Source: Nanobdellota archaeon (lineage in GTDB: Archaea > Nanobdellota > Nanobdellia > SCGC-AAA011-G17 > GW2011-AR17). From it: DNA of 57,385 nt. Within the stretch, counting starts at the first letter, position 1; each line of letters opens with the position of its first letter. This document shows, in pieces, positions 25,079 through 46,887 of this stretch. The stretch is taken from NCBI GenBank assembly GCA_013329215.1, contig DUKS01000012.1, positions 1-57,385 of the forward strand, given 5' to 3'. The translations under genes were made by a program, and so were the position numbers. The notes beneath the pieces were generated by a model, which saw only the letters and a list, made by a program, of their open reading frames with translations, searched no databases and was not told the origin of the DNA.

Positions 25079-25899
25079 TGAAGCAGATTACAGCAATAAT
25101 CGCAATGCTGGCTATATTAAGCAGTATGGCCTCTGCACTAACATGCAGCATTGATGCAAAAAGCGAAGTCAGGGCAGGGGAAGAACTGTATTTTGCCTAT
25201 ACAATAAGCTCAGAAGCCGGCAGTGGAGTTATATACATCCCGGAAATTTCATGCCAAAGCAATATGCCTTCAAGCGCGCTCGAAAAATCATTGGGCAGGG
25301 CTGACGCCAAAGGGAAGATCAGCGGAAGATACAGCATGGGAACTGTTAATGCCGTTATAAAATCCCAGGAATGCACCGCAAGAATAGGAATAACAGCCCC
25401 CGCCGAAGCAGCCTGCGAAAAGAAAATAATGATAAGGGCAGACCCTGAGATTGACATCAGGTTAACGGCATGCAGCAATAATGCATGCACAACTAAAAGG
25501 TCCTCTTTTGTAAAAGGAAGCGCAGTATATCTTCAGGCGCCTTCAAAAGTATCCGCTTCTGCCACAGCTTCAATTGCATTCCCTGACAAGATAATAAAAA
25601 CAATTGCATTGCCGGGAAGCTTCATAGCAACCCAATCAGGCGAATACATGATAGAATATACTGCAACAAAACCAGGGTATAAGGAAACGAAGGGTACGGC
25701 AAGCATATTTGTAATAGAGCAGGCATATACAGTGCCTTATGCAGACTTTTCTTCAAAAGCAGGGCAGGCAGTCGTCAGGCCTGTGTTCAGGGAGCCTTCT
25801 GCCTTAGCCGCGCCGGCTGCAGCAAAAGCCACTGCAAAGAAATCAACCTTCAGGGGGCTTCTGAGCAGGATTACAGGGTATTTTGCAATGATATTCTGA
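25078..25899 (+). CDS. Secreted hypothetical protein with a C-terminal hydrophobic anchor
   Basis: GTG start overlapping the upstream stop (TAGTG). Signal peptide. C-terminal ..KKSTFRGLLSRITGYFAMIF. Confidence 0.45.
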   Translation: MKQITAIIAMLAILSSMASALTCSIDAKSEVRAGEELYFAYTISSEAGSGVIYIPEISCQSNMPSSALEKSLGRADAKGKISGRYSMGTVNAVIKSQECTARIGITAPAEAACEKKIMIRADPEIDIRLTACSNNACTTKRSSFVKGSAVYLQAPSKVSASATASIAFPDKIIKTIALPGSFIATQSGEYMIEYTATKPGYKETKGTASIFVIEQAYTVPYADFSSKAGQAVVRPVFREPSALAAPAAAKATAKKSTFRGLLSRITGYFAMIF

Positions 25900-26270: not shown

Positions 26271-26416
26271 GCGGTAGCTACTGCCCACCAGCCACTACCT
26301 ACGTGCCATATGCCATCTCCACCACAGAAATCCTTTTATACCATTAGTCTTTTTGCTATATTCGAGGCAACGAAATTAACATTTCGAGCCTCACTTCGTA
26401 AATACTCGTGAGGCAA

Positions 26417-28717
26417 ATGGAAACTTTAATCTGGACTGAGAAATACCGCCCGAGGGACTTTAATGAAATAAAAGGCCAGGGCGACATAATAAAAACAATA
26501 CATGCAATGGTTGAAAAGCAGAATCTTCCCCATCTGCTGTTCTCAGGGCCTGCAGGCGTCGGGAAAACCACATTGTCATTAATAATCGCAAGAAAGCTCT
26601 TTGGAGAAAGCTGGAAGCAGAACTTTTTGGAATTAAACGCAAGCGTAGCCCCGGAAACCCCCATACTAATTAAAGAGCGAGGCAGGGTAAAGAGAACTAA
26701 TTTCGGAAAACTTGCTGAAGCCTGCTTTAAAGATAGCAATCCGAAATATGCATATCCGGAAAGCCTGGAAATTCTTTCAATTAATAAAGAACATAAGATT
26801 AAGTTTATGCCTGTAAAAAATATTTCAAGACATAAAGTCGGCAGAATAGCCAAGATTTCATATGAGGGAGGGTATATAAGAACCAGCTTGAATCATTCAG
26901 TAATTGTCTTGGACAAAGAGGGAAACCTGTCATCAAAGGAAGTTGCCTGCCTAAAAACAGGAGACCATTTGATAACTTTTAAAGATGCAGTGGATTCCGG
27001 CATGATGCGCATACCAGTGGATGAATTTGCGCCAAAAACGCATAATCAGTTAAGAAGCGGGCTAATAGAAAATCCCCGCGTAAAAACTATCATCGATTAC
27101 ATGGAAGTTGACAACAGCAATTCATGGCTAATGGGCTTATACCTTGCAGAGGGATGCACCAGTTTCAAAGGCAAAACAAGCGGACAAACGATTTTTACAG
27201 TCAGATACCCGCATGAGGAGCAAATCGCCCAAAAAGTCGCAGGCTTTGCCAAGGAAAAGTGGGGCATACCTTCTTACATCGTAAAAGGGAAATCAGGATT
27301 TAACCGGAATATTGAATCATCAATACAGGTAAGATTATTAAATACGCAATTAGCCAGATTCTTCAAAAATAATTTTTATGATGCAATGGGCATAAAGCGG
27401 GCGCCTTTCAAAAGGGTGCCTTGTTTTATGTTTGATGCCCCCTTAGAGTCAAAGTGGGCTTTTCTTCAGGGCTATATGGGCGATGCCTGCGGCGACTGGG
27501 AAAGTTATCTGAGATATAGCTCTGCCTCTCAGGAGAATTTAATAGATATAGCATGGCTTGGAAGGCTTTCTGGGTTGGACACATCTGTTTTTAACGAAGA
27601 AGCAAGGATAGTATGGAAACGGCCTTCTTTTTCGTATTTAAAAACAGAGCTTCTGCCTGCTGAATTGCTGATAGAATTGGCAAACAAGCTGGGCGAAAGA
27701 AAAGGGTTTAACGCCAAATACCTTCTTAGGCATCACCTTTATTGCAAAAAAGCAAAACGCATATCTAAAGATGCATTCCATAAAATCTTAACGCTTATTG
27801 AGTCAAAATCGTCTTTAGATGCGGGGGAGAGGGATATGCTTAAAAAATTTGGTAAGCTCATAGAGTCTCCCCTTTCAATTATTCAAATTAAGAAAATATC
27901 TATAGATGAAACATATCATGATTTCGTGTATGATGTCAGTGTGCCGGGCGCTGAAATGTTCTGGGGAGGCACAACACCCGTGCTTTTGCACAATAGTGAC
28001 GACCGCGGGATAGACGTCGTAAGGAACACAATAAAGGACTTTGCAAAGACAAGGGCAATAGGCAATTTCCCGTTCAAGATAATATATCTCGACGAATGCG
28101 ACAGCCTTACAAAAGAGGCGCAGCAGGCATTAAGAAGGACGATGGAGAATTTCGTGTCAGGCACTAGATTTATTTTAAGTTGCAACTATTCAAGCAAGAT
28201 AATTGATGCGATACAGAGCAGGTGCGCTGTTTTCAAGTTCAGGCCTTTGGAGGCAAACGAGCTTCTGCCTGTCATAAACGACATTGCGAAAAAAGAGTCG
28301 CTGGACATTGATGAGGCAGCGAAGAAAGCATTGTGCGAAATGGCCGACGGCGATGTGAGAAAAGTGGTCAACATACTCCAGAGCTGCGCTGCATTGACCA
28401 GCAAAGTGACTGAGAAGTCTGTTTACAGCATTGCGTCGCTTGCAGAGCCCAAGGAAATAGCTGATGTGCTTAACGCGGCTGTTAAAGGCGACTTTTCAAA
28501 CGCAAGGAGCATGCTGCTGGACACGCAGCTCAAATACGGGCTTTCCGGCATTGACATAATCAAGCAAATCCAAAAAGAAGTATGGAAGCTTAACATCCCT
28601 GACAAGGAAAAGCTGGGCATGATTGAAAAGTGCGGCGAGATTGAGTTCAGGATGGTTGAGGGGGCTGACGAGTTTGTGCAGCTGGAAGCGCTGATTGCAT
28701 CATTCATCCGCAGGTAA
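26417..28717 (+). CDS. rfcS: Replication factor C small subunit, interrupted by one intein
   Basis: WTEKYRP, Walker A GPAGVGKTT, ELNA|S...HN|SDDRGIDVVR, Walker B YLDECD, SRC motif QSRCAVFKF. The spliced product would be ~315 aa. Confidence 0.92.
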   Translation: METLIWTEKYRPRDFNEIKGQGDIIKTIHAMVEKQNLPHLLFSGPAGVGKTTLSLIIARKLFGESWKQNFLELNASVAPETPILIKERGRVKRTNFGKLAEACFKDSNPKYAYPESLEILSINKEHKIKFMPVKNISRHKVGRIAKISYEGGYIRTSLNHSVIVLDKEGNLSSKEVACLKTGDHLITFKDAVDSGMMRIPVDEFAPKTHNQLRSGLIENPRVKTIIDYMEVDNSNSWLMGLYLAEGCTSFKGKTSGQTIFTVRYPHEEQIAQKVAGFAKEKWGIPSYIVKGKSGFNRNIESSIQVRLLNTQLARFFKNNFYDAMGIKRAPFKRVPCFMFDAPLESKWAFLQGYMGDACGDWESYLRYSSASQENLIDIAWLGRLSGLDTSVFNEEARIVWKRPSFSYLKTELLPAELLIELANKLGERKGFNAKYLLRHHLYCKKAKRISKDAFHKILTLIESKSSLDAGERDMLKKFGKLIESPLSIIQIKKISIDETYHDFVYDVSVPGAEMFWGGTTPVLLHNSDDRGIDVVRNTIKDFAKTRAIGNFPFKIIYLDECDSLTKEAQQALRRTMENFVSGTRFILSCNYSSKIIDAIQSRCAVFKFRPLEANELLPVINDIAKKESLDIDEAAKKALCEMADGDVRKVVNILQSCAALTSKVTEKSVYSIASLAEPKEIADVLNAAVKGDFSNARSMLLDTQLKYGLSGIDIIKQIQKEVWKLNIPDKEKLGMIEKCGEIEFRMVEGADEFVQLEALIASFIRR
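26642..27994 (+). mobile_element. 451-aa intein with a LAGLIDADG homing-endonuclease domain inside rfcS
   Basis: Starts with Ser (SVAPETPILI, block A). Block B TSLNHSV. LAGLIDADG motifs WLMGLYLAEGCT and AFLQGYMGDACGD. Ends VLLHN followed by the +1 Ser of the extein SDDRGID. Confidence 0.85.
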
Positions 28718-32452: not shown

Positions 32453-32869
32453 ATGGCAAACAAAAAAGGCGCAGAGCTGTCGCTGAACTTTATCATAATA
32501 GCGGCGATTGTGCTTGTTGTGCTCATAGTCGCGATACTGTTCTTTACAGGAGCAAGCGGCAAGCTGCTCAAGCAAAAGGCAGAAGTAACAAAGCTAAGCA
32601 CGCAGGAATACAACCTTGCGCTGACTATATGCAGAAGCTCATGCTCGGCAAAAGCAGAGGCAGCCTATGACAACCCCAGTTTTACAGAGGGGCTGGTTAA
32701 GGCAGGGTACACATCATGTGAAGACCTCGTAGAACTTGAGCCATTTGCAGACGAGTGCTCAAAGAGCTGCAAGGAGCCGGCAGGCACGCCCGAAGCGCCC
32801 GTACCTGCGGAAGGCTGCACAGGCAAAAACAGGGCAGACTGCAAGGCCCCGTGCAAATGGGAGCTATAA
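32453..32869 (+). CDS. Type IV pilin-like protein (class III signal peptide), Cys-rich ectodomain
   Basis: MANKKG|AELSLNFIIIAAIVLVVLIVAILFF prepilin-type N-terminus. 8 Cys in the C-terminal part. GAGGTGA SD upstream and a strong oligo-T tract downstream. Confidence 0.7.
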   Translation: MANKKGAELSLNFIIIAAIVLVVLIVAILFFTGASGKLLKQKAEVTKLSTQEYNLALTICRSSCSAKAEAAYDNPSFTEGLVKAGYTSCEDLVELEPFADECSKSCKEPAGTPEAPVPAEGCTGKNRADCKAPCKWEL

Positions 32870-32963: not shown

Positions 32964-33152
32964 ATGAAACTCAACAAAAAAGGTGTAGAGCTTTCAATGA
33001 CCATGATTGTGATTATTGCCCTTCTCCTGATAGTGCTGATTGTAGCAATACTCATATTCAGCGGCGGCATGGAAAGCTTTGTCGGAAAGCTGAAGGGCGT
33101 AAACGCAGAAATCTGGGCTGCAAAGCCTAACTTCACAGGCATGGGAAAGTGA
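32964..33152 (+). CDS. Small type IV pilin-like protein (class III signal peptide)
   Basis: MKLNKKG|VELSMTMIVIIALLLIVLIVAILIF. 62 aa from ATG 32964. Confidence 0.6.
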   Translation: MKLNKKGVELSMTMIVIIALLLIVLIVAILIFSGGMESFVGKLKGVNAEIWAAKPNFTGMGK

Positions 33153-33159
33153 AACGCCA

Positions 33160-34974
33160 ATGGCATTAAGCAGGAAAGGAAGCACTGAATCATTAAGCAC
33201 GCTTATAGGCGTGATAGTGGCTATTCTGATAATCGTGCCTGTCGGCATCGCATTCTACCATTATATTGCTGCCGAAACAAACATGGAAAAAACACTGGCT
33301 ATGCTTGTGAAAAGGACAGGCAGCCTTGATGATGGGGAGAAAGGCGCAATAGTCGGCTATATAGATGAAGGGTACATCCTGATAGGATTCCAGAAAGATG
33401 CAACTGACTTCGGCTCAAACAGGTTCTGGTGGTCATGCGGTGAAGGCTTCTGGAACAGGTATACAATGCTCTGGAACATAAAAAAGCCCGCATCATGCAA
33501 GGACAAGGCATGCCTCTGCGCCTGCAAATTCGTCGACGTGTGGGGGGCAGAGCCTGTACTGCAGCCGAGCGCTTGCGAGCAGGGCATGTGCGTGCCTTAT
33601 GAAGAGGATTTTGATGAAGTAATGCACGGCGGGCCTGCATGCGAATTCGGGCCGTGGATAGACACTGAGAACAACCCTGTCGTTGAGATACATTATGAGA
33701 AGAAAGGCGACATAACAGGAATATGCGAGCATGAAGAGTGCGTTTCAAGCGACCTAGACAAGGCAAGAAAGGTGTTTACAGAGTTCTACAACTCATACAT
33801 GGAATGCAGAAACTACAATTCAAATGACTGCATATGCGACAAGGTGTATGTTGAGGAAATGCCGCGCAATTATGAGATAGCGCTTGACGGAAACGGCGTA
33901 AAGACAACAATAAAGCTTGTAGACACTGAAAGCAAGGCAATGAGCTCAAGGCTTGTCGAGCCAGATACGTTCGGAGTGTATAATCCCGCTACAGACGAAG
34001 CAAGGGAAAGAAGCTCACTGCGCATAATATCATTCCTGCCTTCAATAAACCCGACAGAAGCCAGCGATATACGGCCTGACAGCACAAGGCTGCCTGTTAT
34101 ATTGTTCAAGGCAAAGAACGGAGCTGTAAGCATGGTGCAGGGAAGGCTTGAGGACGCAATTGCAAAAGGAAAAGACTACTGCACCGCAGAAAAAGCAGAG
34201 CCCTGCAGTTTTGGGATTGGAGGCGAGACATTATATGGCCTATGCGTTAATACCAGCTGCGACATGCCGTTTTGGGCAGAAACAGAAGCATTGCCCGAAG
34301 GAAAATGCGGCAGGGAAGGCTATGTCTGCTGCAAGGAAAAAAACCCGTGCGAATTCTCCGGAGGCCTGTGCAGAGAGGGCTGCGCGCAGGGTGAAATAGA
34401 GCTCAAGCACCCGGCTTACGGAAGCATGGCTTGCCAGCTTGACAATCAAGTGTGCTGCGCGCCGGCGGGAACAGCGCTTCCGGGCGGAAACCAGTGCCAG
34501 TCTAACTTCGGCGTATGCAGGAAAGGCCTGTGCAGGGCTGACACAGAATACAGGGATTCCGATTACAGGTGTGACAGCTCTGAAGAAGTTTGCTGCATGG
34601 TGCAGGGGCAGCTTTCCGAGTATAAATCAGACATTGCATTAACAAGGCAGGAAGAAGAAACAAGAACAAGGATTGCAAATGCGCCGCCCGCGCCGGAGCA
34701 GTGCGCGAATGCCGGAGACGAGTTTTGCGGCCCCTCGCCCTGCGACTTAAGCACGCAAACGCCGCTTGAAGGCAAGATATGCCCCGGAGCCAGCCCCTAC
34801 TGCTGCAGGCAGGGTTCCCAGTGCGAAAAAATGGCAGGAGGCACATGCAAAAACGTATGTGAAGAAAGGCTTAATGAAGAAATGGCGTCTGGTTCCTTAT
34901 TCACTTCGCCGCCTTGCGGCTCCGGAGAGGTATGCTGCGTTGAAACTATTATTCCTCTCGGCACAGGAGGTTAA
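33160..34974 (+). CDS. Large pilin-like/surface protein with a class III signal peptide and five C-terminal six-cysteine repeat modules
   Basis: MALSRKG|STESLSTLIGVIVAILIIVPVGIAF. ~47 Cys in total. Repeats span aa 349-593, each ending in CC. Confidence 0.65.
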   Translation: MALSRKGSTESLSTLIGVIVAILIIVPVGIAFYHYIAAETNMEKTLAMLVKRTGSLDDGEKGAIVGYIDEGYILIGFQKDATDFGSNRFWWSCGEGFWNRYTMLWNIKKPASCKDKACLCACKFVDVWGAEPVLQPSACEQGMCVPYEEDFDEVMHGGPACEFGPWIDTENNPVVEIHYEKKGDITGICEHEECVSSDLDKARKVFTEFYNSYMECRNYNSNDCICDKVYVEEMPRNYEIALDGNGVKTTIKLVDTESKAMSSRLVEPDTFGVYNPATDEARERSSLRIISFLPSINPTEASDIRPDSTRLPVILFKAKNGAVSMVQGRLEDAIAKGKDYCTAEKAEPCSFGIGGETLYGLCVNTSCDMPFWAETEALPEGKCGREGYVCCKEKNPCEFSGGLCREGCAQGEIELKHPAYGSMACQLDNQVCCAPAGTALPGGNQCQSNFGVCRKGLCRADTEYRDSDYRCDSSEEVCCMVQGQLSEYKSDIALTRQEEETRTRIANAPPAPEQCANAGDEFCGPSPCDLSTQTPLEGKICPGASPYCCRQGSQCEKMAGGTCKNVCEERLNEEMASGSLFTSPPCGSGEVCCVETIIPLGTGG

Positions 34975-34975
34975 A

Positions 34976-35575
34976 ATGAGAGAATTCATTCTTCGCGCAA
35001 GGACAGCAAAAACGTCCGCTGATTTCGATACAAACAACCTCCCTGCCGCGGGCAGGATGGACTCTGTGTGCGCGTCTGTTTCAAATGCGCTGAACATTGC
35101 AAACACATTAAGAAAAGATACCGCAATCCATGTTGTAATGGAAGGGGGCCCTGAGCCGCCGAAGCTTTTGAGCTTTTACGGCGACAGGCTGAAAGGCATG
35201 GCATGGGACGAAAAAAGCATCGGAGAGTTCATAAAGAACGCCCTTGCAAAAGGAAAAGGCATGGAGGTTGGGGAAAAGAGAGAATTCTGCGACGGGCTTC
35301 TTGTTGAGAAAAAAAGCTTTGAGGCGCTGGTCAAGGAAAAGATAAAAGAGGGGAAGCAGGTTTTGTACCTGCACCAGGAAGGGAAAGACATAAGGGAAGC
35401 AAAGCTTCACGAGGATATTGTTGTTGTGTTCGGAGATTACATAGGAATGCCGCGGGCAACCGAAGGCTTGTTGGACAGGCTGGGCGCCGAAAGAGTTTCC
35501 CTGGGCCCCAAAATGCTGTTTGCAGCGCACTGCATCATAGTCGCGCATAACGAGCTTGACAGAAAGTTTGGCTGA
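34976..35575 (+). CDS. trmY: tRNA (pseudouridine54-N1)-methyltransferase TrmY-like (DUF358/SPOUT)
   Basis: MREFILRARTAKTSADFDTNNLPAAGRMDSVCASVSNAL... and C-terminal SLGPKMLFAAHCIIVAHNELD resemble Mj1640-type TrmY. The longer track ORF (34766) overlaps the upstream gene. Confidence 0.65.
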   Translation: MREFILRARTAKTSADFDTNNLPAAGRMDSVCASVSNALNIANTLRKDTAIHVVMEGGPEPPKLLSFYGDRLKGMAWDEKSIGEFIKNALAKGKGMEVGEKREFCDGLLVEKKSFEALVKEKIKEGKQVLYLHQEGKDIREAKLHEDIVVVFGDYIGMPRATEGLLDRLGAERVSLGPKMLFAAHCIIVAHNELDRKFG

Positions 35576-35613
35576 GAAAAAAGCTTATAATATAGTAAAG
35601 CGTCTTATTTCCC

Positions 35614-35997
35614 ATGAAAAAGAGGATTATATTAATAATGGCGATAATATCGCTTCTTGCCGCGGGCTGCTCGCAGTATAATGCGCAGCCTTACACAGCA
35701 CCTTCCGCCCCCGCGGTTTCGGAAGCCGCGCCAGGCACAGGAAGCACGGAAGCAGAAACAAATGCAGTAACAATAAGCAGCTTTGCATTCAACCCGCAGG
35801 AAATCACGATAAAAGCAGGAGGCTCAATAACCTGGACGAATCTCGACTCCGCGCCCCATACAGTTAAGTTCGAAGGTTTTGAATCAGAAAGGATGGGCAA
35901 CGGAGGCAGGTATGAGCATGCATTCATGGAGCCTGGAGAATATGATTATATCTGTAGCATTCACCCGTCAATGAAAGGGAAGGTGATTGTGCAATGA
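35614..35997 (+). CDS. Blue-copper (cupredoxin, plastocyanin/amicyanin-like) lipoprotein
   Basis: Lipobox LLAAGC. Type-1 Cu ligands in SAPHTV and YICSIHPSMKG. Confidence 0.8.
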   Translation: MKKRIILIMAIISLLAAGCSQYNAQPYTAPSAPAVSEAAPGTGSTEAETNAVTISSFAFNPQEITIKAGGSITWTNLDSAPHTVKFEGFESERMGNGGRYEHAFMEPGEYDYICSIHPSMKGKVIVQ

Positions 35998-36260
35998 GCG
36001 GAGAAAAATTTGACGCAGGCATGGCACCAAAGAAATGCATCTGCATTTCATGCCCCACATACAAGGATTGCGGGGAATTGGCATTCTGCCTGTCAAAAAA
36101 AGAGGCATGCAAGGCAATAACTGAAGAAAAAGGCTGCCTGTGCCAGTCCTGCCCTGTGCATGAAGCAATGAGTTTCAGGCACGCATATTATTGTACAAGC
36201 GGCGGAGAAAAGCACCAGACAACAAAAACAGAGAAGGCCCGCTACGCAAGAAAGCAGTAA
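35994..36260 (+). CDS. DUF2769-like Cys-rich small protein (paralog 1)
   Basis: CICISCPTYKDCG..FCL..C..EEKGCLCQSCPVH..YYC. Confidence 0.6.
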   Translation: MSGEKFDAGMAPKKCICISCPTYKDCGELAFCLSKKEACKAITEEKGCLCQSCPVHEAMSFRHAYYCTSGGEKHQTTKTEKARYARKQ

Positions 36261-36274
36261 AGGTGAAATAAAAT

Positions 36275-36490
36275 ATGGCAGGAAAAGAACCAAGGTGCAT
36301 TTGCGGCTCATGCCCCAGCTTTAATGAATGCGGCGCAAAGGCGTTCTGCTTTGATGAAACAGGGAAAAGCAAGTGCATAAAAGAAGAAAAAGGCTGCTTG
36401 TGCCCGTCATGCCCTGTGCAGGATAAATTTAAGTTCAGCCACACATATTACTGCATAAGGGGAAGCGACAAAAAGCAGGGCAAAAAATGA
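36275..36490 (+). CDS. DUF2769-like Cys-rich small protein (paralog 2)
   Basis: CICGSCPSFNECG..FCF..C..EEKGCLCPSCPVQ..YYC, colinear with paralog 1. Confidence 0.6.
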   Translation: MAGKEPRCICGSCPSFNECGAKAFCFDETGKSKCIKEEKGCLCPSCPVQDKFKFSHTYYCIRGSDKKQGKK

Positions 36491-37269
36491 AATGGAAATG
36501 CTCTGTCTGCGGATATGTGCATGAAGGCAAAAGCCCGCCGAAGGAATGCCCGCAGTGCAGCTCCGGCGCAGGAGAATTTGTAAGGGATGCGCCAGGGAAA
36601 AAGCTGGCTTATGACGGAAAAAAATTCGATGTCCTGCTGATTAACGGAAGCTCGCACAATGCGCACAACACAAGCCTGCTTGCAGACATTGCAGAAGGCG
36701 AACTGAAAAAAAGAAAAATAAGCTGCAGGCGCTTTGACCTGAACAGGCTGCAGATATACCACTGCTGGTGCTGCTACAGCATGGAAGACAAGGCATGCAC
36801 TTACCCGTGCAGGAACCAGCTTGACGATGCGCCCGCCCTGCATGAAATGCTTCTTCAGGCAAAAGCTGTCATCGTAGTAAGCCCCATAAACTGGAACAAC
36901 ATGTCTGCGCGGCTCAAGGATTTCCTTGACAGGCTGACATGCATAGAGAACATGCCCCTGCTGGGGAAGAAAGCGCCGTGCATAGGAAAGATTGCCGCTG
37001 TTCTCATAAACGGGCATGAAGACGGCGCAATGAAGACAGCAATGGACATTTTCCTTTATTTCGAGCAGATGGGATTCATTCTTGCCCCGTTCGGCTTTGC
37101 GTACAGGACACACGGCGGGCAGTTCAATGCAAAGGAAGACAATGGCTTCTTCAGGGGGGACAGGAAAATAAAAAAGGATATCGAAGGCGTTGTCCATAAT
37201 GTTGCAGAGATGATTAAGCTCGGCATTGAAAAAAAAGCAGAAGGCAGGATAAAAGAGGTGTGCGAGTAA
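36487..37269 (+). CDS. Rubredoxin-like zinc ribbon fused to a flavodoxin-like FMN reductase / iron-sulfur flavoprotein
   Basis: WKCSVCGYVHEG..PKECPQC, then VLLINGSSHNAHNTS and the compact Cys cluster HCWCCYSMEDKACTYPC. Confidence 0.65.
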   Translation: MKWKCSVCGYVHEGKSPPKECPQCSSGAGEFVRDAPGKKLAYDGKKFDVLLINGSSHNAHNTSLLADIAEGELKKRKISCRRFDLNRLQIYHCWCCYSMEDKACTYPCRNQLDDAPALHEMLLQAKAVIVVSPINWNNMSARLKDFLDRLTCIENMPLLGKKAPCIGKIAAVLINGHEDGAMKTAMDIFLYFEQMGFILAPFGFAYRTHGGQFNAKEDNGFFRGDRKIKKDIEGVVHNVAEMIKLGIEKKAEGRIKEVCE

Positions 37270-37482
37270 ATGCTGAACAATATCTCATATTACCTGATTC
37301 TCGGCAGGCCCCTGATATTCTATCTCGGGCTTTTGACTTTAACTTCGCTTCTTACAACAGCAACGCTCGGAGCGCTTGTGATTAAGGGCAGGATAAAATT
37401 CAAATACCATAAGGCGCTTGCAATAACCACAGTCTGCATAGCGCTTACGCACGGAACGCTGGCGTTCCTGGCCTATCTGTAA
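37270..37482 (+). CDS. Small two-helix membrane protein
   Basis: 70 aa with two hydrophobic helices. Starts immediately after the upstream stop. Confidence 0.4.
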   Translation: MLNNISYYLILGRPLIFYLGLLTLTSLLTTATLGALVIKGRIKFKYHKALAITTVCIALTHGTLAFLAYL

Positions 37483-37593
37483 CTGCATAAAATCAGTAAA
37501 CTATTTTCACTTCGTTCAAAAGTTCACCCACTACGTTCGTAAACTATAAAAAACACCAGCCTATATCATATCTGTCAAAAAGGGGATGATACC

Positions 37594-38172
37594 ATGAAAA
37601 CAACCGAAAACCTGTCAAAAGCATTTGCAGGCGAGTCAATGGCAAGGAACCGCTACACGTTTTTTGCAGCTATAGCAAGAAAAGAGGGATACGAGCAGAT
37701 AGCCGAGATATTCACAATGACTGCCGACAACGAAAAAGAGCACGGAAGCTGGTTCTTCAGGATGGCTAACGAGCTCAAGAAAGGCGACAAAAAGCTTGCA
37801 GAGATTAAGGTTGAAGCGCCTGTGAATACTGCATTGGGAACAACAGCAGACAACCTCATGGAAGCAATACACGGTGAAAACATGGAGCATACAAAGCTTT
37901 ATCCTGAATATGCAGACACAGCAGAAAAAGAGGGATTCAAGGCAATCGCGGCAAGAATCAGGGCTATTGCAAAGGCAGAATCGCACCATGAAGAGAGGTA
38001 TGCAAAGCTTTTGGCTGAGCTGAAAGCAGGGACTTTGTTCAAAAAGAACGAGCCAGTTGCGTGGATGTGCAGGGAATGCGGGTATGTGCATATAGGGAAA
38101 GAGCCGCCTGCAAAGTGCCCGTCATGCGACCATGCAAAGGGATTTTACCAGATAAAGTGCGAGAGCTATTAA
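37594..38172 (+). CDS. rbr: Rubrerythrin
   Basis: Di-iron four-helix motifs (FAGESMARNRY, EKEH, ENMEH, ESHHEERY) plus a C-terminal rubredoxin CRECG..CPSC. Confidence 0.9.
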   Translation: MKTTENLSKAFAGESMARNRYTFFAAIARKEGYEQIAEIFTMTADNEKEHGSWFFRMANELKKGDKKLAEIKVEAPVNTALGTTADNLMEAIHGENMEHTKLYPEYADTAEKEGFKAIAARIRAIAKAESHHEERYAKLLAELKAGTLFKKNEPVAWMCRECGYVHIGKEPPAKCPSCDHAKGFYQIKCESY

Positions 38173-38222: not shown

Positions 38223-38600
38223 ATGAAAGCGCTGGGCAAAAGAGGGGAAGCTGAAGAGCTGGAAACACTTACACTGTTTGATGTTGTGCTTGGGATTGTG
38301 GTTGCAACTTTTCTGGTAATTGCCGCGCTGTCGTTCAGCAGCATTTCATCATTCGGCAGGCTGTACCTTGAAAAAGACGTGTCTCTTCTCACAAGCGCGG
38401 TGCTGTCATCCCCCGGGCAGATTACGCTGAAATACCCTATAGGAGAAGATTACAGAGTGCAGATGTGCGAACCTGAAACCAATATATGCAATCATGTGAA
38501 AGTTGTGCATGACCCCACGCTTCTTGGCGTATTAAAGAAAGACAGGCTGGTATTCGGCTCAAGCCCTGCAACAGACCTTAGCCTGGAGAGGGAAGAATGA
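38223..38600 (+). CDS. Pilin-like protein (class III signal peptide)
   Basis: MKALGKRG|EAEELETLTLFDVVLGIVVATFLVIAALSF. TATA-like GATATATAAA ~28 nt upstream. Confidence 0.5.
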   Translation: MKALGKRGEAEELETLTLFDVVLGIVVATFLVIAALSFSSISSFGRLYLEKDVSLLTSAVLSSPGQITLKYPIGEDYRVQMCEPETNICNHVKVVHDPTLLGVLKKDRLVFGSSPATDLSLEREE

Positions 38601-39172
38601 GAATAGGCAAAAAGGCCAGCTATGACTTCAGCAGGAAGGCAATCTATTTTATAGTTGTCCTGTTTGTGCTTACGTTCATATTCCTTTACATGCACGGCGC
38701 CATTGTAAATTACAACAAGATTGCGGTGCAGAAAGAGGCTGCAATAGCAGGGGTTGTGCTTGCGCAGGAAGCGATAATGTCGCCCAAGTGCTTTGCATAC
38801 GTGGACGCGGCAACAGGCAGGGCTTATCCGGGCATGATAGACCTTGAAAAATTCAACAGCGAAGGCAAGCAGCGCTGCATGGAATACCTGAACATCCCTT
38901 ATAAAATAACGCTTTTGTCATTTGGGAACGTGCCCGAGCTGCAGTCTGACGGAAAAACAATAGCAAAAGGCAGCCAGGAAGAGCTTAAAGAAAAAGTTGT
39001 AAGAAGCGTGCTGATAATGAACAAAGGCCAGGTTACAAGAGGCTCAATGACATTTGAGCTTAATGACTATTTCATAGATGACAGCAAGAAAGAAAACTCA
39101 GAGCCTTATGAGGAAATATCAAGGCAGTCTGAGGAATTTTATGAGAATGTGGGGGCAACTGTGTCTATCTAA
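38597..39172 (+). CDS. N-terminally anchored hypothetical protein (pilin-like operon member)
   Basis: One N-terminal TM helix (AIYFIVVLFVLTFIFLY). ATGA overlap with the upstream gene. Confidence 0.45.
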   Translation: MRIGKKASYDFSRKAIYFIVVLFVLTFIFLYMHGAIVNYNKIAVQKEAAIAGVVLAQEAIMSPKCFAYVDAATGRAYPGMIDLEKFNSEGKQRCMEYLNIPYKITLLSFGNVPELQSDGKTIAKGSQEELKEKVVRSVLIMNKGQVTRGSMTFELNDYFIDDSKKENSEPYEEISRQSEEFYENVGATVSI

Positions 39173-39177
39173 GCAAA

Positions 39178-39756
39178 ATGAAAACGAACAGAAAAAAAGG
39201 GCAGACAGAGGATATATTCGCAGATCTTGTCATCGCGTTAATCCTGATTGTAGCGACAATAGCAATAATCGCTACAAAAGAGTATTTTCAGGGCAACAGC
39301 GTGCCTGTAAAAACACAAAAAGACGTAACAGGGCTCTATGGCACTGACATAGTGACATTGATGCGGACACCTGTGCCTGAATTTTACCTGCGCGATACAA
39401 TATGGCGTGAGTCTGAGGTAAAATTCGGAGAGATGCTGGCAATAATCGGCGAAGGGAACAAAGAAAAATACCCATGGGTATTCTCAAAGCAGATTGCGGG
39501 ATTTTCCCCAAACTACGGGTTTGTGGTGCAGGAAGGCGGCAAATGCACTGCAAGCTTTGAAGAGGCGCTTGGCATTTACATGCGCTTTTTATGGCAGGTT
39601 GCATTGTACAACGATAAAGGGGAGCAGGTATTCTGGTGCTCGCCAAAGGGCGTCAAGTTCACAAACGAGCGCGACCCTTACTGCCAGCTCATAAGGACAA
39701 AGCTGCCAACAGAGACAGGAAATACAATAACTGCTGAAATAGGGGTGTGCCCATGA
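39178..39756 (+). CDS. Pilin-like protein (class III signal peptide)
   Basis: MKTNRKKG|QTEDIFADLVIALILIVATIAIIA. Confidence 0.5.
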   Translation: MKTNRKKGQTEDIFADLVIALILIVATIAIIATKEYFQGNSVPVKTQKDVTGLYGTDIVTLMRTPVPEFYLRDTIWRESEVKFGEMLAIIGEGNKEKYPWVFSKQIAGFSPNYGFVVQEGGKCTASFEEALGIYMRFLWQVALYNDKGEQVFWCSPKGVKFTNERDPYCQLIRTKLPTETGNTITAEIGVCP

Positions 39757-41141
39757 ACAGAAAAGCGGTTGCTGTGCTTGCTATATCCGCAATCGGGTTC
39801 CTTGTGGCGATTATATTATTCTATAACAAGGCCATCAACCTTGTCCCGGGCCCGCCTGCCGAATACCTCGGCGAAACCCAGGTCAAGGTGTATGGAGCAT
39901 ACATTGAGGGGGAAAGGCAGCTGCTTTACATTGACATGGCTGCAGAATATGCATTTGACGCTGCAGGCGGGGCTGAAAAGCTAAGCGCAGCGAATGACGG
40001 ATTCCTGGTAAGGTTCGGGCTTGAATTCTCAGGATACCTGGACAAGTTTAACAGCATGTTTAACGCAGGCTTAAACATTTCAAATTACACATTTTATGCT
40101 GACAATACGGGAATATGGGGGGTCTGCAACAAGGACCTGAACCTGACAACAGAGCTTTACGATTATAAGTTCAGGCCTAACTTCAGGGTTGCTGCAAAGA
40201 ACAGGCTGCCGCAGGAAGTGCAGCAGCACTATGAAGAGCAGGCTCAGGAAGCTCCTGCAGAGGAGCCTGTGCAGGAAGTGCCGGCAGAGGAAGAAACGCC
40301 AGTAGAGCTTGTTTCCGGCAATGTAAAATTCGTTGTAATGAGCGATATCCACACATTCCCGGAGGGTGGCCGGGCTTTAAGGATAGCGGCCGCAGATGCT
40401 GTAAAAGCATTAAACCCGGACCTGGTGGTTATGACCGGCGACATTGTGTCAGGCGACCCGGATACAACACTTGAATCAAGAGTAACAGCAATGTGGAGCC
40501 TGTTTGACACTGAAACAAGAAGCAGGCTGGGCAGCATACCTATTGCAGCCCTCGGCGGGAACCATGACATGTATACATCCCAACTATTGGAGGGATACAC
40601 AAATTACTGGAATGAACATCGGCCCGCCCTTGATGTAACAGGCAATTACCCGCTTTATTATTCATTTGACTTCAACAATGTGCATTTTGTCATGCTTAAG
40701 AGCAACAGGGCGCGTATGGAAGAGTCGCAGCTCGAATGGCTCGCAGATGACCTCGGCAATGCAAAATCCGAAGGCAAGGCTTCATTGGTGTTTTCCCATT
40801 ACGCCCTTGCCGCCATGAAACTAAACGACCCGGATGTGCTGCAGCCAAATGCAAGGCTTAAGGACATCTTAAAGCAGAACAATATTATAGCATTCATACA
40901 TGGCGACACGCATGTCTTTTTCAGGGGACTGACAGACGGGATTAATGTAATAAATCTAGCGTCTGTTGCCGGCGTAAAAAGAAAGCTGGCCGGCGCAGAA
41001 ACGAACACGCCGCGTATGATAATGGTCGGGGAAATAAGCAACGGGCAATTAAGCACTTATGAGCTCATAGAGCCGGATTATCTCACGCAAAGGTTTGACG
41101 AAAGCGTGATTGCGGGCATAAGGCCACCAGGCTTTAGCTAG
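39753..41141 (+). CDS. Membrane-anchored extracytoplasmic calcineurin-like metallophosphoesterase
   Basis: N-terminal TM helix. Motifs VVMSDIH, MTGDIVSGD, GGNHD, FSHYAL, IHGDTH. ATGA overlap with the upstream gene. Confidence 0.7.
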   Translation: MNRKAVAVLAISAIGFLVAIILFYNKAINLVPGPPAEYLGETQVKVYGAYIEGERQLLYIDMAAEYAFDAAGGAEKLSAANDGFLVRFGLEFSGYLDKFNSMFNAGLNISNYTFYADNTGIWGVCNKDLNLTTELYDYKFRPNFRVAAKNRLPQEVQQHYEEQAQEAPAEEPVQEVPAEEETPVELVSGNVKFVVMSDIHTFPEGGRALRIAAADAVKALNPDLVVMTGDIVSGDPDTTLESRVTAMWSLFDTETRSRLGSIPIAALGGNHDMYTSQLLEGYTNYWNEHRPALDVTGNYPLYYSFDFNNVHFVMLKSNRARMEESQLEWLADDLGNAKSEGKASLVFSHYALAAMKLNDPDVLQPNARLKDILKQNNIIAFIHGDTHVFFRGLTDGINVINLASVAGVKRKLAGAETNTPRMIMVGEISNGQLSTYELIEPDYLTQRFDESVIAGIRPPGFS

Positions 41142-42348: not shown

Positions 42349-42760
42349 CTTCCTGCTTAACCTCCTCAACAATAAAATGCGTACGTTTTGAACTGCAAAG
42401 CCTTGCAGCCTGCTCCTCAAATTCATAATATGCTCCCATATTGCGGAATATCGCCGTTGCCATGACAGCAAACCTGCCTGAAGACACTGCAAGCGAGTTG
42501 GTGTTCCGGCTCTTTTTTAAAAATGACAAAAGCCTCCTGCTTTTCGGGTGGAACAGCATGAGCGCGTGCACTTCAAAACCGAGCGCCTTAAAATCAGGGA
42601 GAGTTGTGTATTTCAGCATCTTAGCCTCCGCGCGCTTAAGCGCCCTCATTGCAGTTTGCCTTGACATGCCCAGCTTGCTTGCAATCCCGGACAGCCTCTG
42701 CCTGGGGTCACGCCTAAGCTCCCTTACTACCTCATTCTCATAACCGTTCAATTGCACCAC
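42335..42760 (-). CDS. Lrp/AsnC-type HTH regulator inside the E1/JAB operon
   Basis: HTH RLSGIASKLGMSRQTAMRALKRAEA followed by a RAM-like beta-alpha-beta (FEVHALMLF..). Apparent GTG start overlapping the E1-like gene by 23 nt. Confidence 0.6.
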   Translation of the reverse strand: MVQLNGYENEVVRELRRDPRQRLSGIASKLGMSRQTAMRALKRAEAKMLKYTTLPDFKALGFEVHALMLFHPKSRRLLSFLKKSRNTNSLAVSSGRFAVMATAIFRNMGAYYEFEEQAARLCSSKRTHFIVEEVKQEDAGC

Positions 42761-44081
42761 CCTGTTTATGGCATTTGCAGCCTCTGATTATATTGCATGC
42801 GCACTGCCTTTCGGCAGGCAGGTAAGACACTTTTTCTGTAAGCTGTTTTTTTGAGAAATACAGCATCTGCCTCCCGGAACTTTCAAGCCCGGTTAAAGAA
42901 GCACCCAGCTCGGCCGCCATCATCGCGCCCGCAAACGCATTGCACATAACAATGTTCGATTCCTGCATTGTATTGCAGGCCTGCGGCTGCGTGCTTGCCT
43001 GTTCAACATTTCCTCTTCTGCATTCCAGGCAAATGTTGTGATTGTATATGTCAAGCCTTGCCGTAAAAGGGCCAACGCCGGCATCGATTAAAACAATGTT
43101 GTTTGCAACAGCATACCTGCTCAAAAGCTCCCTTGCGCCCCAATTGTCAACGCACGAGAGCACAGCAGAATATTTTTTGCCTGCAGTTTTTGCTTCATTC
43201 TCATCAAAAAACCTGCCGAACGCGCGCATATTCGCTCCAAGCAGGCTTTCGAGCCTTTGCTTAAGCACAGCAGCCTTATTCCTGCCTATTGCATCATAGT
43301 ACAGCACCTGCCTGTTTAGGTTTGTCGCATCAATATCATCGCCGTCATAAACATCAAAAGGAATCCTGAGGCAGGCAAGGTTCAAAGCAGCGTACGTGCC
43401 TATCCCGCCTGCGCCAACAACAAGCACCCGCCCGCTTTTCAGCCTGGGAAACGAAACAGCCTTTTCTGCCCTTACAGAATCCGCTATTGACATTTTTCTG
43501 AAAAACCTGCCTTTCGCAAAAAGATTATAGTTTAAAACTCCGGAAACAGCCTCATCCCCTTCAAGCCCAAGAAGCGCTTTTCTTATTTCGTCCAGTGCAA
43601 TTGCAGCGATTAAGCCTGACGAAAACGAGCCCTGCTCTTTTCCATTATACCTGCGCATGGCTGCTGTTTCCAGGCAAGCATGGCCTTTTTCCCCACTGTA
43701 GCCTGCATATATTGATGCGGAAATATCATCGCTCGAAGCGCTTACAAAAAGCCTTGCCTTCCCTGCATATTCACATGCAGCTTGTTTTGAGGCTTCATTG
43801 TTTGTGAAATCAGCAACAACATCAGCAGGCCCTATGCTTCCGGCGTTTGCGGCAGTATTCAGGCGTATTTCCGGGTTTATTTCACTAATGAGTCTTTCAA
43901 GCGGTTTTTTAAACAAGTGCCGCTGCCTATGATTTTGCTGCACCAGTGTTATGTTTCCTATCCCCAGGCCAGCCATGTACAGCAATGCGTAATCACTTAC
44001 CATTGAATCCCCCACCAGCACAACACGGCTGTTTCTAAGTATAGCCTGGTCAAAAACAGATGACTGCCTTGTATAGTCCAT
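42738..44081 (-). CDS. E1-like (ThiF/MoeB/UBA superfamily) enzyme with tandem domains: degenerate N-terminal and intact C-terminal adenylation domain
   Basis: C-terminal half: RVLVVGAGGIGTYAALNLA, DGDDIDATNLNRQ, SCVDNWGAR, CLEC ... CACNIIRGCKC. N-terminal half: same fold pattern but GDSMVS replaces GxGxxG, and LVQQNHRQRHLF replaces DxDxxxxSNLxRQ. Confidence 0.8.
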   Translation of the reverse strand: MDYTRQSSVFDQAILRNSRVVLVGDSMVSDYALLYMAGLGIGNITLVQQNHRQRHLFKKPLERLISEINPEIRLNTAANAGSIGPADVVADFTNNEASKQAACEYAGKARLFVSASSDDISASIYAGYSGEKGHACLETAAMRRYNGKEQGSFSSGLIAAIALDEIRKALLGLEGDEAVSGVLNYNLFAKGRFFRKMSIADSVRAEKAVSFPRLKSGRVLVVGAGGIGTYAALNLACLRIPFDVYDGDDIDATNLNRQVLYYDAIGRNKAAVLKQRLESLLGANMRAFGRFFDENEAKTAGKKYSAVLSCVDNWGARELLSRYAVANNIVLIDAGVGPFTARLDIYNHNICLECRRGNVEQASTQPQACNTMQESNIVMCNAFAGAMMAAELGASLTGLESSGRQMLYFSKKQLTEKVSYLPAERQCACNIIRGCKCHKQGGAIERL

Positions 44082-44082
44082 A

Positions 44083-45081
44083 TTAGTTCACATTTGTAAC
44101 CCTGCTAATGCCCGGGGCTCCTGTTATTCTCTGTCTCTCAAACCGGCTGTCTGTGAGGAAAGCATACGGCTTTGCATTGCTCCTGTATTCCTCTGTGAGC
44201 ACAGCCCTTGCCTTTTCCATCAATGCCTCAAGCTGCAGCTTCGGATTGTCAGGATGCAGCCTTTTTATTGAGCCATAATCATACCTGCCTGTGCATATGC
44301 ACTGCAATGGCTTTCCGGCAGCAGGAAGCGAAGGGTGGCTGTAAGGGTTAAGCACATAGAGCTTGCCAAAGTCAACCGAATCCGCGTTCATGAATACAGG
44401 GGCGCCCACTTCTGCCTCTCCAAAGCTGTAGTAAGCGCCGTTCTTTCTCTCATAAAGGATGTAAGGCTGTATTTTTGTGAAAACATAGAAGCGACTGTCC
44501 ATTATCCTAAAGCCCACCTGCTTTTCATTGTCATAAAAAATCCCTTCTGCAATGCTGTCCAAAGCCATACGCAGGGGGCTGCCTGCCGCGCGTTTCCTTA
44601 TTTTTTTCTTATAATCCGCTTCAATATCACTTACTGCTGCTATGTGCGACAAGCCAAGATTAAAATTTCTTCCTCTAACAAAAATATCCCCCCGGCTGGA
44701 TTCAAAAAGCGGATACACCATAGAATTAAGAAAAAGCAGTTCCTTCTTTGGCAGGACATGCTCTGCTATCGCACCGCCGCCCACAGCGCCCGAAAGCTGC
44801 GTGATAACAAGCAGCGCAGGCTGCAAATGCGGGCTTTGTGTTCCGGATTCTGCCTTTGTCCTTATTGCGGAAAGCAGGCCCGAATGCATCCCTGATTTTG
44901 CCAGATAATCCTGCTCAAGCATCGGGATTGTTGTTTTTTGCACAAGCCCGATTCTGCATCCGAAAAAGTCCATATACGCGCCCCCATAGCCATTGCATGC
45001 CTGATAAACAGCAGGATAGACAATAACGCACGGGCCTTCTGAAAAATACCTGAAGAATGTGTCAGGAACAGGCATGCCCAT
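44083..45081 (-). CDS. Hypothetical protein; the C-terminal ~140 aa is a candidate E2 (UBC-like) domain
   Basis: YVLNPYSHPSLPAAGKPLQCICTGRY resembles the E2 HPN-loop-Cys signature. It is preceded by beta-strand-like segments (FYVFTKI, YILYERKNG, YYSFGEAEV) and followed by a helix. Inference only. Confidence 0.3.
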   Translation of the reverse strand: MGMPVPDTFFRYFSEGPCVIVYPAVYQACNGYGGAYMDFFGCRIGLVQKTTIPMLEQDYLAKSGMHSGLLSAIRTKAESGTQSPHLQPALLVITQLSGAVGGGAIAEHVLPKKELLFLNSMVYPLFESSRGDIFVRGRNFNLGLSHIAAVSDIEADYKKKIRKRAAGSPLRMALDSIAEGIFYDNEKQVGFRIMDSRFYVFTKIQPYILYERKNGAYYSFGEAEVGAPVFMNADSVDFGKLYVLNPYSHPSLPAAGKPLQCICTGRYDYGSIKRLHPDNPKLQLEALMEKARAVLTEEYRSNAKPYAFLTDSRFERQRITGAPGISRVTNVN

Positions 45082-46465: not shown

Positions 46466-46887
46466 CTGCACCCTACATCATCGTAGCGCTTTACAGCCAT
46501 GTCAAGGCAGTCATAAGCTATGCCGTCAGCTGTATGCCGCTGGTCAATATAGCCCGCAACCCTGTCATCAAGGCGTATGATTTCTGTTTCAGCGCCTATG
46601 CGCTTTTTTTTGGTGTTGTCTGCATTATACACGCGCACTTCGCAAAATGTGTTTGCGCCGTTGTGCGCTGCAAGGTATTCTTTTATTTCAGGAGCGGCCC
46701 CTTCCTGGCTGTTGCCTGCAATTTCTTCAATGACTTCCCTGAACGTGGCTTTTCTCAGCCTGTCATCAAGCTCTGCATAAACAGCCCTTGACTCGTAATC
46801 AGCTTTTTCAGCTGCGTCTTTCGCGCCCGCCGCCTTTTGCCTGTTCACTTCTGTGTTCACTATGCCCACAAGTTTGTTCTCACCCAT
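46462..46887 (-). CDS. Hypothetical protein, first gene of the E1/JAB operon
   Basis: 141 aa from ATG 46887, with AGGAG 9 nt upstream; alternatives are ATG 46896 and TTG 46917. No recognised motif. C-terminus is ..KRYDDVGCR. Confidence 0.45.
   Translation of the reverse strand: MGENKLVGIVNTEVNRQKAAGAKDAAEKADYESRAVYAELDDRLRKATFREVIEEIAGNSQEGAAPEIKEYLAAHNGANTFCEVRVYNADNTKKKRIGAETEIIRLDDRVAGYIDQRHTADGIAYDCLDMAVKRYDDVGCR

Follow-up and report, generated by a model that had tools for sequence, protein, structure and literature searches.

The beta-defensin fold is built from a short N-terminal turn or helix and a three-stranded antiparallel sheet, held together by the disulfides C1-C5, C2-C4 and C3-C6, and in mammalian defensins a Gly-x-Cys at the second Cys forms a beta-bulge motif. 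The same fold serves as an enzyme inhibitor in the two-domain tick carboxypeptidase inhibitor. DPANN archaea need contact with other cells, and their contact molecules are little known. Trans-defensins are stated to have evolved exclusively in animals (PMC7203481). Bacterial defensins such as xanthusin and actifensin are cis-defensins with a cysteine-stabilised alpha-beta (CS-alpha-beta) fold (PMC11561630), and AvBD11 is an avian double beta-defensin (PMC9138766). For archaeal pili, Makarova et al. (2016) suggested a role as "either a minor pilin or an adhesin" for large signal-peptide proteins encoded beside pilin genes, and many components of archaeal pilus systems carry stabilising cysteines (PMC4858521). 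Here we describe a 604-aa protein with five tandem six-Cys modules, encoded on a 57,385-nt stretch of DNA from a Nanobdellota archaeon (assembly GCA_013329215.1, contig DUKS01000012.1) that we analysed as a whole and call the window. We read the protein as a disulfide-stapled beta-defensin-type binding array on a minor-pilin-like carrier, and we give this statement as a whole a probability of roughly 55%. An earlier note on this DNA had pointed to the beta-defensin-like spacing of the modules and knew of no such module in archaeal surface proteins; our literature searches for beta- or trans-defensins in archaea, Nanoarchaeota or prokaryotes likewise found no earlier report.

Results

The protein is the product of a forward-strand open reading frame (ORF) and, by the ORF list and translation, contains 44 Cys. 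When we checked the modules against the translation, all 30 of their Cys stood at the positions listed in the earlier note, between aa 349 and aa 593 (nt 34204-34938), and the inter-Cys spacings of all five were as it had given them (Table 1). A further conserved Cys, C341, lies immediately upstream of module 1. The modules are joined by linkers of 5, 12, 35 and 5 residues, and Cys makes up 11.7% of the C-terminal region. Such regularity was not reproduced by chance: in 20,000 rounds of shuffling the C-terminal 263 aa (30 Cys), a relaxed six-Cys...CC pattern turned up no more than twice, whereas the real sequence has it five times. A module hidden Markov model (HMM), run on the six-frame ORFs of the window, found five copies in the 604-aa ORF and none in any other. 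Modules 3 and 4 comply in full with the framework C-x4-8-C-x3-5-C-x9-13-C-x4-7-CC and, as first noted, they are the only two with a C3-C4 loop of textbook length. Modules 1, 2 and 5 break the framework at this loop (15-18 residues), and module 1 also does so at the C1-C2 loop (12 residues).

We then looked at the module family. A search with the full-length protein returned five relatives, an exhaustive search of 1.84 billion representatives with a 24-module profile returned three more, and a profile of the N-terminal domain added seven further proteins. The remaining matches of the exhaustive search were low-complexity false positives (P0009 and P0011) and one fragment. No animal defensin appeared in it at E <= 0.001, which is expected because the query is a single 40-residue domain. 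It also missed a module-bearing protein encoded at a related locus, gene G of L001, and weakly scoring carriers may therefore exist; a word-index search with 36 modules gave no candidates. Among 185,579 species, each represented by one genome, the gene is present in four, all of them Nanoarchaeota/Nanoarchaeia metagenome-assembled genomes (MAGs), and the homologues are confined to Nanoarchaeota MAGs. The module family is tiny, with about 13 module-bearing proteins in all, and the profile search of wider proteomes that the earlier note had proposed gave real matches in this small Nanoarchaeota family alone. A described prokaryotic Cys-rich repeat family, which the note had named as a finding that would tell against its proposal, was matched by the modules neither in Pfam (E <= 10) nor in NCBIfam.

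Over the family, the module HMM counts 58 copies in 14 proteins, with 2-10 modules per protein. The note had also made its proposal depend on conserved Cys positions, and these are indeed kept: all six Cys are present in every module-bearing relative, with one four-Cys module variant as the sole exception. This variant, itself conserved in two proteins, is also the only departure from a fixed Cys order and CC doublet. The Gly that the note had often seen before the second Cys occupies position -2 relative to Cys2 in 90% or more of the modules, both in the set of 24 and in the set of 42, and in four of the five window modules (module 4 lacks it). The C3-C4 loop ranges from 11 to 22 residues across the family. 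Two kinds of module can be told apart, type A (CxxxGGxCxxxxC(D/E)xSxQTxxxGxxCPxxxxxCC) and type B (C.N.A.G.CK..C..RLNEE.A..S.FTS..C..G..CC), the latter being mostly the last module of its protein. This terminal type B module is the best-conserved segment of the family, with a mean identity of 66% between proteins compared to about 40-47% for the N-domains. Outside type B, modules diverge faster than the N-domain, as in P0004 versus P0005, where they share 43% identity and the N-domains 86%.

In most members (P0003-P0006, P0008, P0010 and P0013-P0016) the last module is followed by a short tail, (V/I/E)PL(G/T/I)xG. The string ETVPL, which resembles this tail, also occurs between modules in P0012 and in the gene G product of L001. 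A reading of the PLGTG tail as a sortase signal was considered and dropped; its register is unlike LPXTG, and no transmembrane segment follows it.

To which known proteins are the modules similar? The whole protein and the 245-aa module region gave no informative match in Pfam, NCBIfam or PDB sequences. When scanned singly against Pfam at E <= 10, modules returned defensin families only, plus one stray zf-C3H1. Defensin_beta_2 (PF13841) was matched by three modules, with the P0002 orthologue of module 2 on top (24.7 bits, above the gathering score of 22.2; E 3e-5). Defensin_beta (PF00711) was matched at E 0.15 and Defensin_big (PF14862) at E 0.097, and the remaining modules with Pfam defensin matches scored 12-15 bits. 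Against 177,635 PDB sequences, the 24-module profile gave 17 matches at E <= 10, all of them beta-defensin-fold proteins; they include big defensins, platypus defensin-like peptides (DLPs), helianthamide, the human beta-defensins hBD1 and hBD106, and defensin BvL. With the 42-module profile there were eight matches, again all with the beta-defensin fold and led by an oyster big defensin (E 0.0023). The six Cys and the GxC of the modules align to those of big defensin, DLPs, helianthamide and hBD106. Finally, hhalign matched the module profile to a beta-defensin alignment with a probability of 93% (P 3e-7, 32 columns), and the controls, alpha-defensins, cis-defensins and knottins, reached 0.3%, 0.6% and 6.5%, respectively.

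Structure prediction points the same way. An AlphaFold2 model of module 3, made with the 42-module alignment, has a predicted local distance difference test score (pLDDT) of 90.5 and consists of a short N-terminal helix (3-6), two strands (10-13, 34-38) and a bridge of two residues (22-23). We compared this model with the PDB using Foldseek, and all of the top 14 matches were taken as beta-defensin fold. Among them are AvBD3, hBD1, hBD2, hBD3 and the N-terminal domain of AvBD11; one is a sea-anemone peptide that is listed as an uncommon fold and is taken here as defensin-like. For most of the 14, the template modeling (TM) score lies between 0.63 and 0.72 (hBD3, 0.53), and the root mean square deviation (rmsd) is 1.4-2.3 Å over 32-41 columns (hBD3, 2.7 Å). 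The model superposes on AvBD3 with a TM score of 0.72/0.75, on hBD1 with 0.69/0.74 (rmsd 1.5-1.6 Å, 36 columns) and on hBD2 with 0.70 (rmsd 1.4 Å), which bears out the suggestion of a beta-defensin-like module at the level of prediction. Of the folds that the earlier note had set side by side, defensin is favoured by Foldseek on the model, and knottin is disfavoured by the hhalign control. The module had no match among viral structures (BFVD). The full-length model has a mean pLDDT of 66.8, and in it modules 4 and 5 show a helix-plus-three-strand pattern at a pLDDT of about 80. Judging from the sequence matches and these models, the five repeats are domains of about 35-45 residues that fold independently and quite probably have a beta-defensin-type fold, and the beta-defensin-like reading is supported as far as computation goes.

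The four-Cys variant has a bearing on disulfide pairing. It occurs at aa 745-775 of P0012 (CTDVEGTCRRSPDAGEVLYEGATCEQSGYYCF) and in the gene G product of L001 (CTDMEGICRIGPAAGETLYTGATCERPNEFCF). Here Cys3 has given way to another residue (Asp in P0012), and Phe stands in for one of the two Cys in the doublet. A bond between Cys3 and Cys6 would lead one to expect such a paired loss, and a Cys3-Cys5 bond might account for it too. All Cys of the module also line up with Cys of solved beta-defensins. From these patterns we infer the pairing C1-C5, C2-C4, C3-C6 for the modules. The three disulfides per module and the knotted form that the earlier note had put forward are predictions.

In charge, the modules depart from the best-known beta-defensins. 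The net charge of 42 aligned modules runs from 0 to -9, with a mean of -2.8, and the window modules lie between -2 and -4; hBD1 and hBD2, by comparison, carry +4 and +6. The linkers between modules contain no conserved dibasic or other processing sites. With the exception of P0007, every module-bearing entry is an anchored protein of 340-830 aa and never a free peptide. P0007, the sole short entry with 86 aa, resembles a fragment of a P0005-like protein. The earlier note had offered a toxin- or antimicrobial-like array as one option, and this option found no support: all 42 modules are neutral to acidic, and they are set in tandem on a 600-aa protein without conserved processing sites.

Next, we considered the part of the protein that carries the array. 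Its N-terminus has a prepilin-like design, in which a basic n-region leads into a [KR]G motif, position +3 is acidic and a hydrophobic helix comes after. The segment MALSRKG/STESLSTLIGVIVAILIIVPVGIAFY is conserved in all homologues, and G7, T9, L12 and S13 are invariant. AlphaFold predicts helix 9-37 here, followed by helix 41-54 and then a beta-sheet. The carrier domain between this anchor and the array matched no known family or fold in Pfam, NCBIfam or the PDB, and no relatives of it were detected beyond the small Nanoarchaeota group. Foldseek of the full-length model against the PDB gave noise only, with TM scores of at most 0.16 for near-full-length alignments. The earlier note had placed the array on a pilin-type anchor. 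The prepilin-like N-terminus agrees with this, as do six further pilin-like genes nearby, while curated pilin models remain without a match (genes A, B and C against Pfam and NCBIfam pilin models at E <= 10 or <= 1). On such an anchor, the modules would be displayed at the cell surface.

The gene is the third (C) in a series of seven, A-G, all of which encode prepilin-like N-termini (Table 1); their order is conserved in the related loci L001, L003, L009 and L010. Genes A and B are conserved upstream neighbours in L001-L004. In L009 and L010, genes D-G stand directly behind gene C, and therefore the ancestral unit is a seven-gene cluster, A-B-C-D-E-F-G. In the window, C and D are separated by a block (34976-38172, forward strand) that encodes a SPOUT methyltransferase, a cupredoxin, two DUF2769 proteins, a rubredoxin-flavoprotein, a small membrane protein and a rubrerythrin. 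Versions of this block occur in L001 and L003, whereas L009 and L010 have none, and from this gene order we read it as a likely insertion. The product of gene B, a prepilin N-terminus followed by about 30 residues, is a candidate minimal major pilin. The gene B type is kept in L001 and L003, and the L010 version has 92 aa, with a Cys-rich extension.

The N-terminal carrier domains of this cluster take interchangeable C-terminal cargo, which may be an array, an unrelated domain or a phosphoesterase. P0017-P0019, encoded in L009 and L010, have the same N-domain as the window protein, followed by an unrelated, Cys-poor C-terminal domain of about 230 aa with conserved LYRDEDLNKDGSLKDE and DYIEIFY motifs. 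This domain matched no Pfam family; there was only a faint, non-significant match to Amidase_3. The second carrier, gene G, ends with a calcineurin-like phosphoesterase as its cargo in the window and with four Cys modules in L001, and its versions in L003, L009 and L010 have no cargo. The last four modules of P0012 are the same cassette as the four modules of L001 gene G, and thus modules have moved between carriers. The gene G product of the window would be a surface-displayed phosphatase or nuclease, which is of interest for a nucleotide-scavenging symbiont.

Table 1. Features of the pilin-like cluster and of the module array (nt positions in the window)
Feature	Position	Strand	Basis
Gene A: 138-aa pilin-like protein (MANKKG/AELS...), Cys-rich C-terminal half	32453..32869	+	conserved upstream neighbour
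Gene B: 62-aa minimal pilin-like protein (MKLNKKG/VELS...)	32964..33152	+	conserved neighbour, stops 8 nt before gene C
Gene C, whole gene: pilin-like carrier and five six-Cys modules	33160..34974	+	ORF list, translation
Gene C, prepilin-type (class III-like) N-terminus MALSRKG/STESLSTLIGVIVAILIIVPVGIAFYHY	33160..33270	+	read from sequence
Gene C, N-terminal carrier domain, aa 38-341, with KACLCAC and DCIC motifs among its 14 conserved Cys	33271..34182	+	alignments
Module 1, aa 349-391, spacing 12-4-15-6-0	34204..34332	+	local HMM score 24.1 bits
Module 2, aa 397-433, spacing 6-3-16-6-0	34348..34458	+	translation and module HMM
Module 3, aa 446-479, spacing 6-4-12-6-0	34495..34596	+	module used for the AlphaFold model
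Linker, aa 480-514, 35 aa, without Cys	34597..34701	+	helical in model, low confidence
Module 4, aa 515-549, spacing 7-4-12-6-0, type A (CDLSxQTxLEGxxCP)	34702..34806	+	sequence
Module 5, aa 555-593, spacing 7-3-18-5-0, type B (C..RLNEE.A..S.FTS..C..G..CC)	34822..34938	+	sequence
C-terminal tail VETIIPLGTGG	34939..34971	+	sequence, family alignments
Gene D: 125-aa pilin-like protein (KRG/EAEE...)	38223..38600	+	directly after gene C in L009 and L010
Gene E: 191-aa pilin-like protein	38597..39172	+	N-terminus, conserved order
Gene F: 192-aa pilin-like protein (KKG/QTED...)	39178..39756	+	N-terminus
Gene G: 464-aa second carrier; anchor and ~170-aa domain, then calcineurin-like phosphoesterase	39747..41141	+	domain scan

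The window was found in groundwater metagenomes, and its other genes, such as those for replication factor C (RFC) subunits and PAC2, are archaeal. A gene at 9883-11100 (forward strand) encodes 405 aa with a signal peptide, a thioredoxin fold with CPNC and a CcdA/DsbD-like polytopic membrane domain. By its domains, the product is a candidate for thiol-disulfide oxidoreductase activity outside the cytoplasm, which bears on a secreted protein with 44 Cys. Oxygen-defence genes for superoxide dismutase (SOD) and rubrerythrin are also present, alongside that for cupredoxin; together with the thioredoxin-CcdA fusion they fit an organism that handles extracytoplasmic thiol chemistry.

Four other regions of the window were recorded in passing. 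The RFC small subunit gene at 26408-28717 (forward strand) encodes 769 aa versus 315 aa in L003, and the excess in the middle is intein-like. At 870-2021 (reverse strand) lies a gene for a 382-aa protein that matches Sigma-70 regions 2 and 4; such a sigma factor is of bacterial type, and the contig is archaeal in other respects. The region 22580-25899 (forward strand) encodes an 832-aa secreted peptidase C25 (gingipain-like) protein (22580-25078) and then a 273-aa secreted protein with a hydrophobic C-terminal tail. Adjoining genes for ThiF-family E1-like and JAB-domain proteins at 42738-46471 (reverse strand) suggest a ubiquitin-like modifier system, and a conserved ThiF gene borders the pilin-like cluster on its downstream side in both L001 and L009.

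Discussion

If the protein is a disulfide-stapled binding array on a minor-pilin-like carrier, its parts could work together as follows. As a minor pilin or tip subunit, the carrier would be processed and kept in the membrane or in a thin pilus by its hydrophobic N-terminal helix. The modules, stapled by disulfides, would point outward and form a stiff, protease-resistant array at the distal C-terminal end of the carrier, where variable inter-Cys loops and a variable copy number (2-10) would supply binding surfaces. The conserved terminal type B module, with its acidic and aromatic RLNEE...S(Y/L)FTSP loop, is a candidate ligand-binding tip, and the variable type A modules may be spacers or variable binders. 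Because the modules are acidic and tethered, their role would be binding or adhesion and not membrane disruption. Taken by itself, a role in binding or adhesion is a little short of an even bet.

Several points weigh against this reading. On the side of the carrier, Pfam pilin and class III signal models do not match the N-terminus, and a scan of the 57-kb window that covered ORFs of 150 aa or more showed no prepilin peptidase, assembly ATPase or TadC. What suggests a binding role is architecture together with conservation patterns. On the side of the modules, the fold is a predicted one and the disulfide pairing a deduced one. Sequence E-values are marginal throughout, the five window modules have no Pfam match at E <= 10, and in three of the five the C3-C4 loop has 15-18 residues, where 9-13 is canonical. 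The beta-defensin and control sequences given to hhalign were partly entered by hand. Foldseek E-values are non-significant (best, 0.28) because the domain is tiny (39 residues), and AlphaFold may recall the beta-defensin fold from the Cys pattern, so that model and sequence matches are not wholly separate lines of evidence. Marginal E-values, window modules without a Pfam match, C3-C4 loops longer than those of beta-defensins and a possible bias of AlphaFold would also be seen with a look-alike, a six-Cys spacing that has converged on the beta-defensin pattern but has another fold or topology, such as that of a novel small disulfide-rich domain. The limitation of the family to a few archaea, remote from animals, is in keeping with this as well. 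We nevertheless consider a look-alike unlikely. Unbiased Pfam and PDB searches return beta-defensin-type families (the stray zf-C3H1 apart), and three other six-Cys families fail as profile-profile controls. The GxC motif is held in common with beta-defensins, the joint loss of Cys3 and a CC Cys suits C3-C6 (or C3-C5) pairing, and a model with a pLDDT of 90.5 superposes on hBD1 at an rmsd of 1.5 Å.

Three other explanations are less probable still. The modules might inhibit extracellular hydrolases, such as proteases or glycosidases. Helianthamide, an inhibitor with the beta-defensin fold, is among the profile matches, the tandem layout and acidic charge are compatible with inhibition, and the secreted C25-type peptidase is encoded in the same window (22580-25078). 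Such an inhibitor array is improbable, however, given that the modules have no specific likeness to inhibitor reactive loops and no tie to any given enzyme, and that pilin-like carriers which swap modules with unrelated cargo point to display. If the Cys stayed reduced in an anoxic aquifer, they could bind Zn, Fe, Cu or toxic metals; the Cys content of the C-terminal region, the groundwater source, which is often anoxic, and the adjoining metal and redox genes would agree with this. Yet the predicted location is extracytoplasmic, ligand geometry of the His or CxxC type is missing, and CC doublets chelate poorly. The number of Cys per module is even, losses come in pairs, and the modules fit a disulfide-stabilised fold with high predicted confidence. 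With SOD, rubrerythrin, cupredoxin and a secreted thioredoxin-CcdA fusion also encoded, we regard metal binding as very improbable. Least probable of all is a defensin-like weapon, in which modules, released by proteolysis or in place, would injure the membranes of host or competitor cells. In its favour, host-defence peptides and venom toxins are the best-known members of this fold family (PMC7203481), and DPANN archaea are themselves attached to hosts. Against this stand the charge of the modules, neutral or acidic in 42 out of 42 where hBD1 and hBD2 are cationic, the 5-residue linkers without conserved processing sites, and the fact that modules stay within anchored proteins of 460-830 aa or a second carrier of 340 aa, P0007 being a likely fragment.

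What is new here is a beta-defensin-like domain in a new domain of life, with a new architecture and charge. A beta-defensin-type domain in Archaea, if true, reopens the question of where the fold came from. We lean towards a structural and disulfide twin of independent origin, which would make the module the first prokaryotic trans-defensin-type domain and a clean convergence on the same Cys framework, Gly-x-Cys motif and fold. That the modules are genuine relatives of the animal domain by common ancestry, and the trans-defensin fold not an animal invention, seems to us quite unlikely; if it were so, animal defensins would have a prokaryotic root or would share an ancient extracellular binding module with pilus-borne arrays. 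The acidic tandem form suggests that the scaffold has been put to a use other than membrane attack. For DPANN archaea, the cluster provides a concrete candidate for cell contact, with pilin-like carriers and exchangeable heads in the form of defensin-like arrays, another domain or a phosphoesterase.

With its carrier, the locus resembles the minor-pilin and tip-adhesin sets of type IV filaments, in which small prepilin-type proteins are clustered with large multidomain members; conserved Cys that are expected to form disulfides and a predicted N-terminal helix plus sheet are further likenesses. It differs from them in that curated pilin models do not match it and the scanned window ORFs include neither a prepilin peptidase nor an assembly ATPase nor TadC. 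Like bacterial defensins, the modules are prokaryotic, small and disulfide-rich, but the bacterial cis-defensins belong to another superfamily and fold (hhalign probability, 0.6%). The module is closest to vertebrate beta-defensins (PF00711, PF13841) and to the C-terminal domain of big defensins (PF14862), with which it has in common a six-Cys framework ending in CC and the Gly-x-Cys. With beta-defensins it aligns Cys for Cys in both HMMER and hhalign, and the predicted fold superposes. Beta-defensins, however, are animal, cationic, single secreted peptides with a signal and a propeptide, whereas the modules are archaeal and acidic and come in 2-10 tandem copies at the end of an anchored protein of 460-830 aa. 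Unlike big defensins, they lack the N-terminal hydrophobic big-defensin domain. Since the window modules fall short of the Pfam threshold, and since cationic charge, single-peptide architecture and animal origin are missing, we file them as beta-defensin-like (trans-defensin-type) and not as beta-defensins. AvBD11 and the two-domain tick carboxypeptidase inhibitor also have more than one beta-defensin-type domain per polypeptide; these are soluble animal proteins with two domains, whereas here up to ten domains are carried on a pilin-like anchor.

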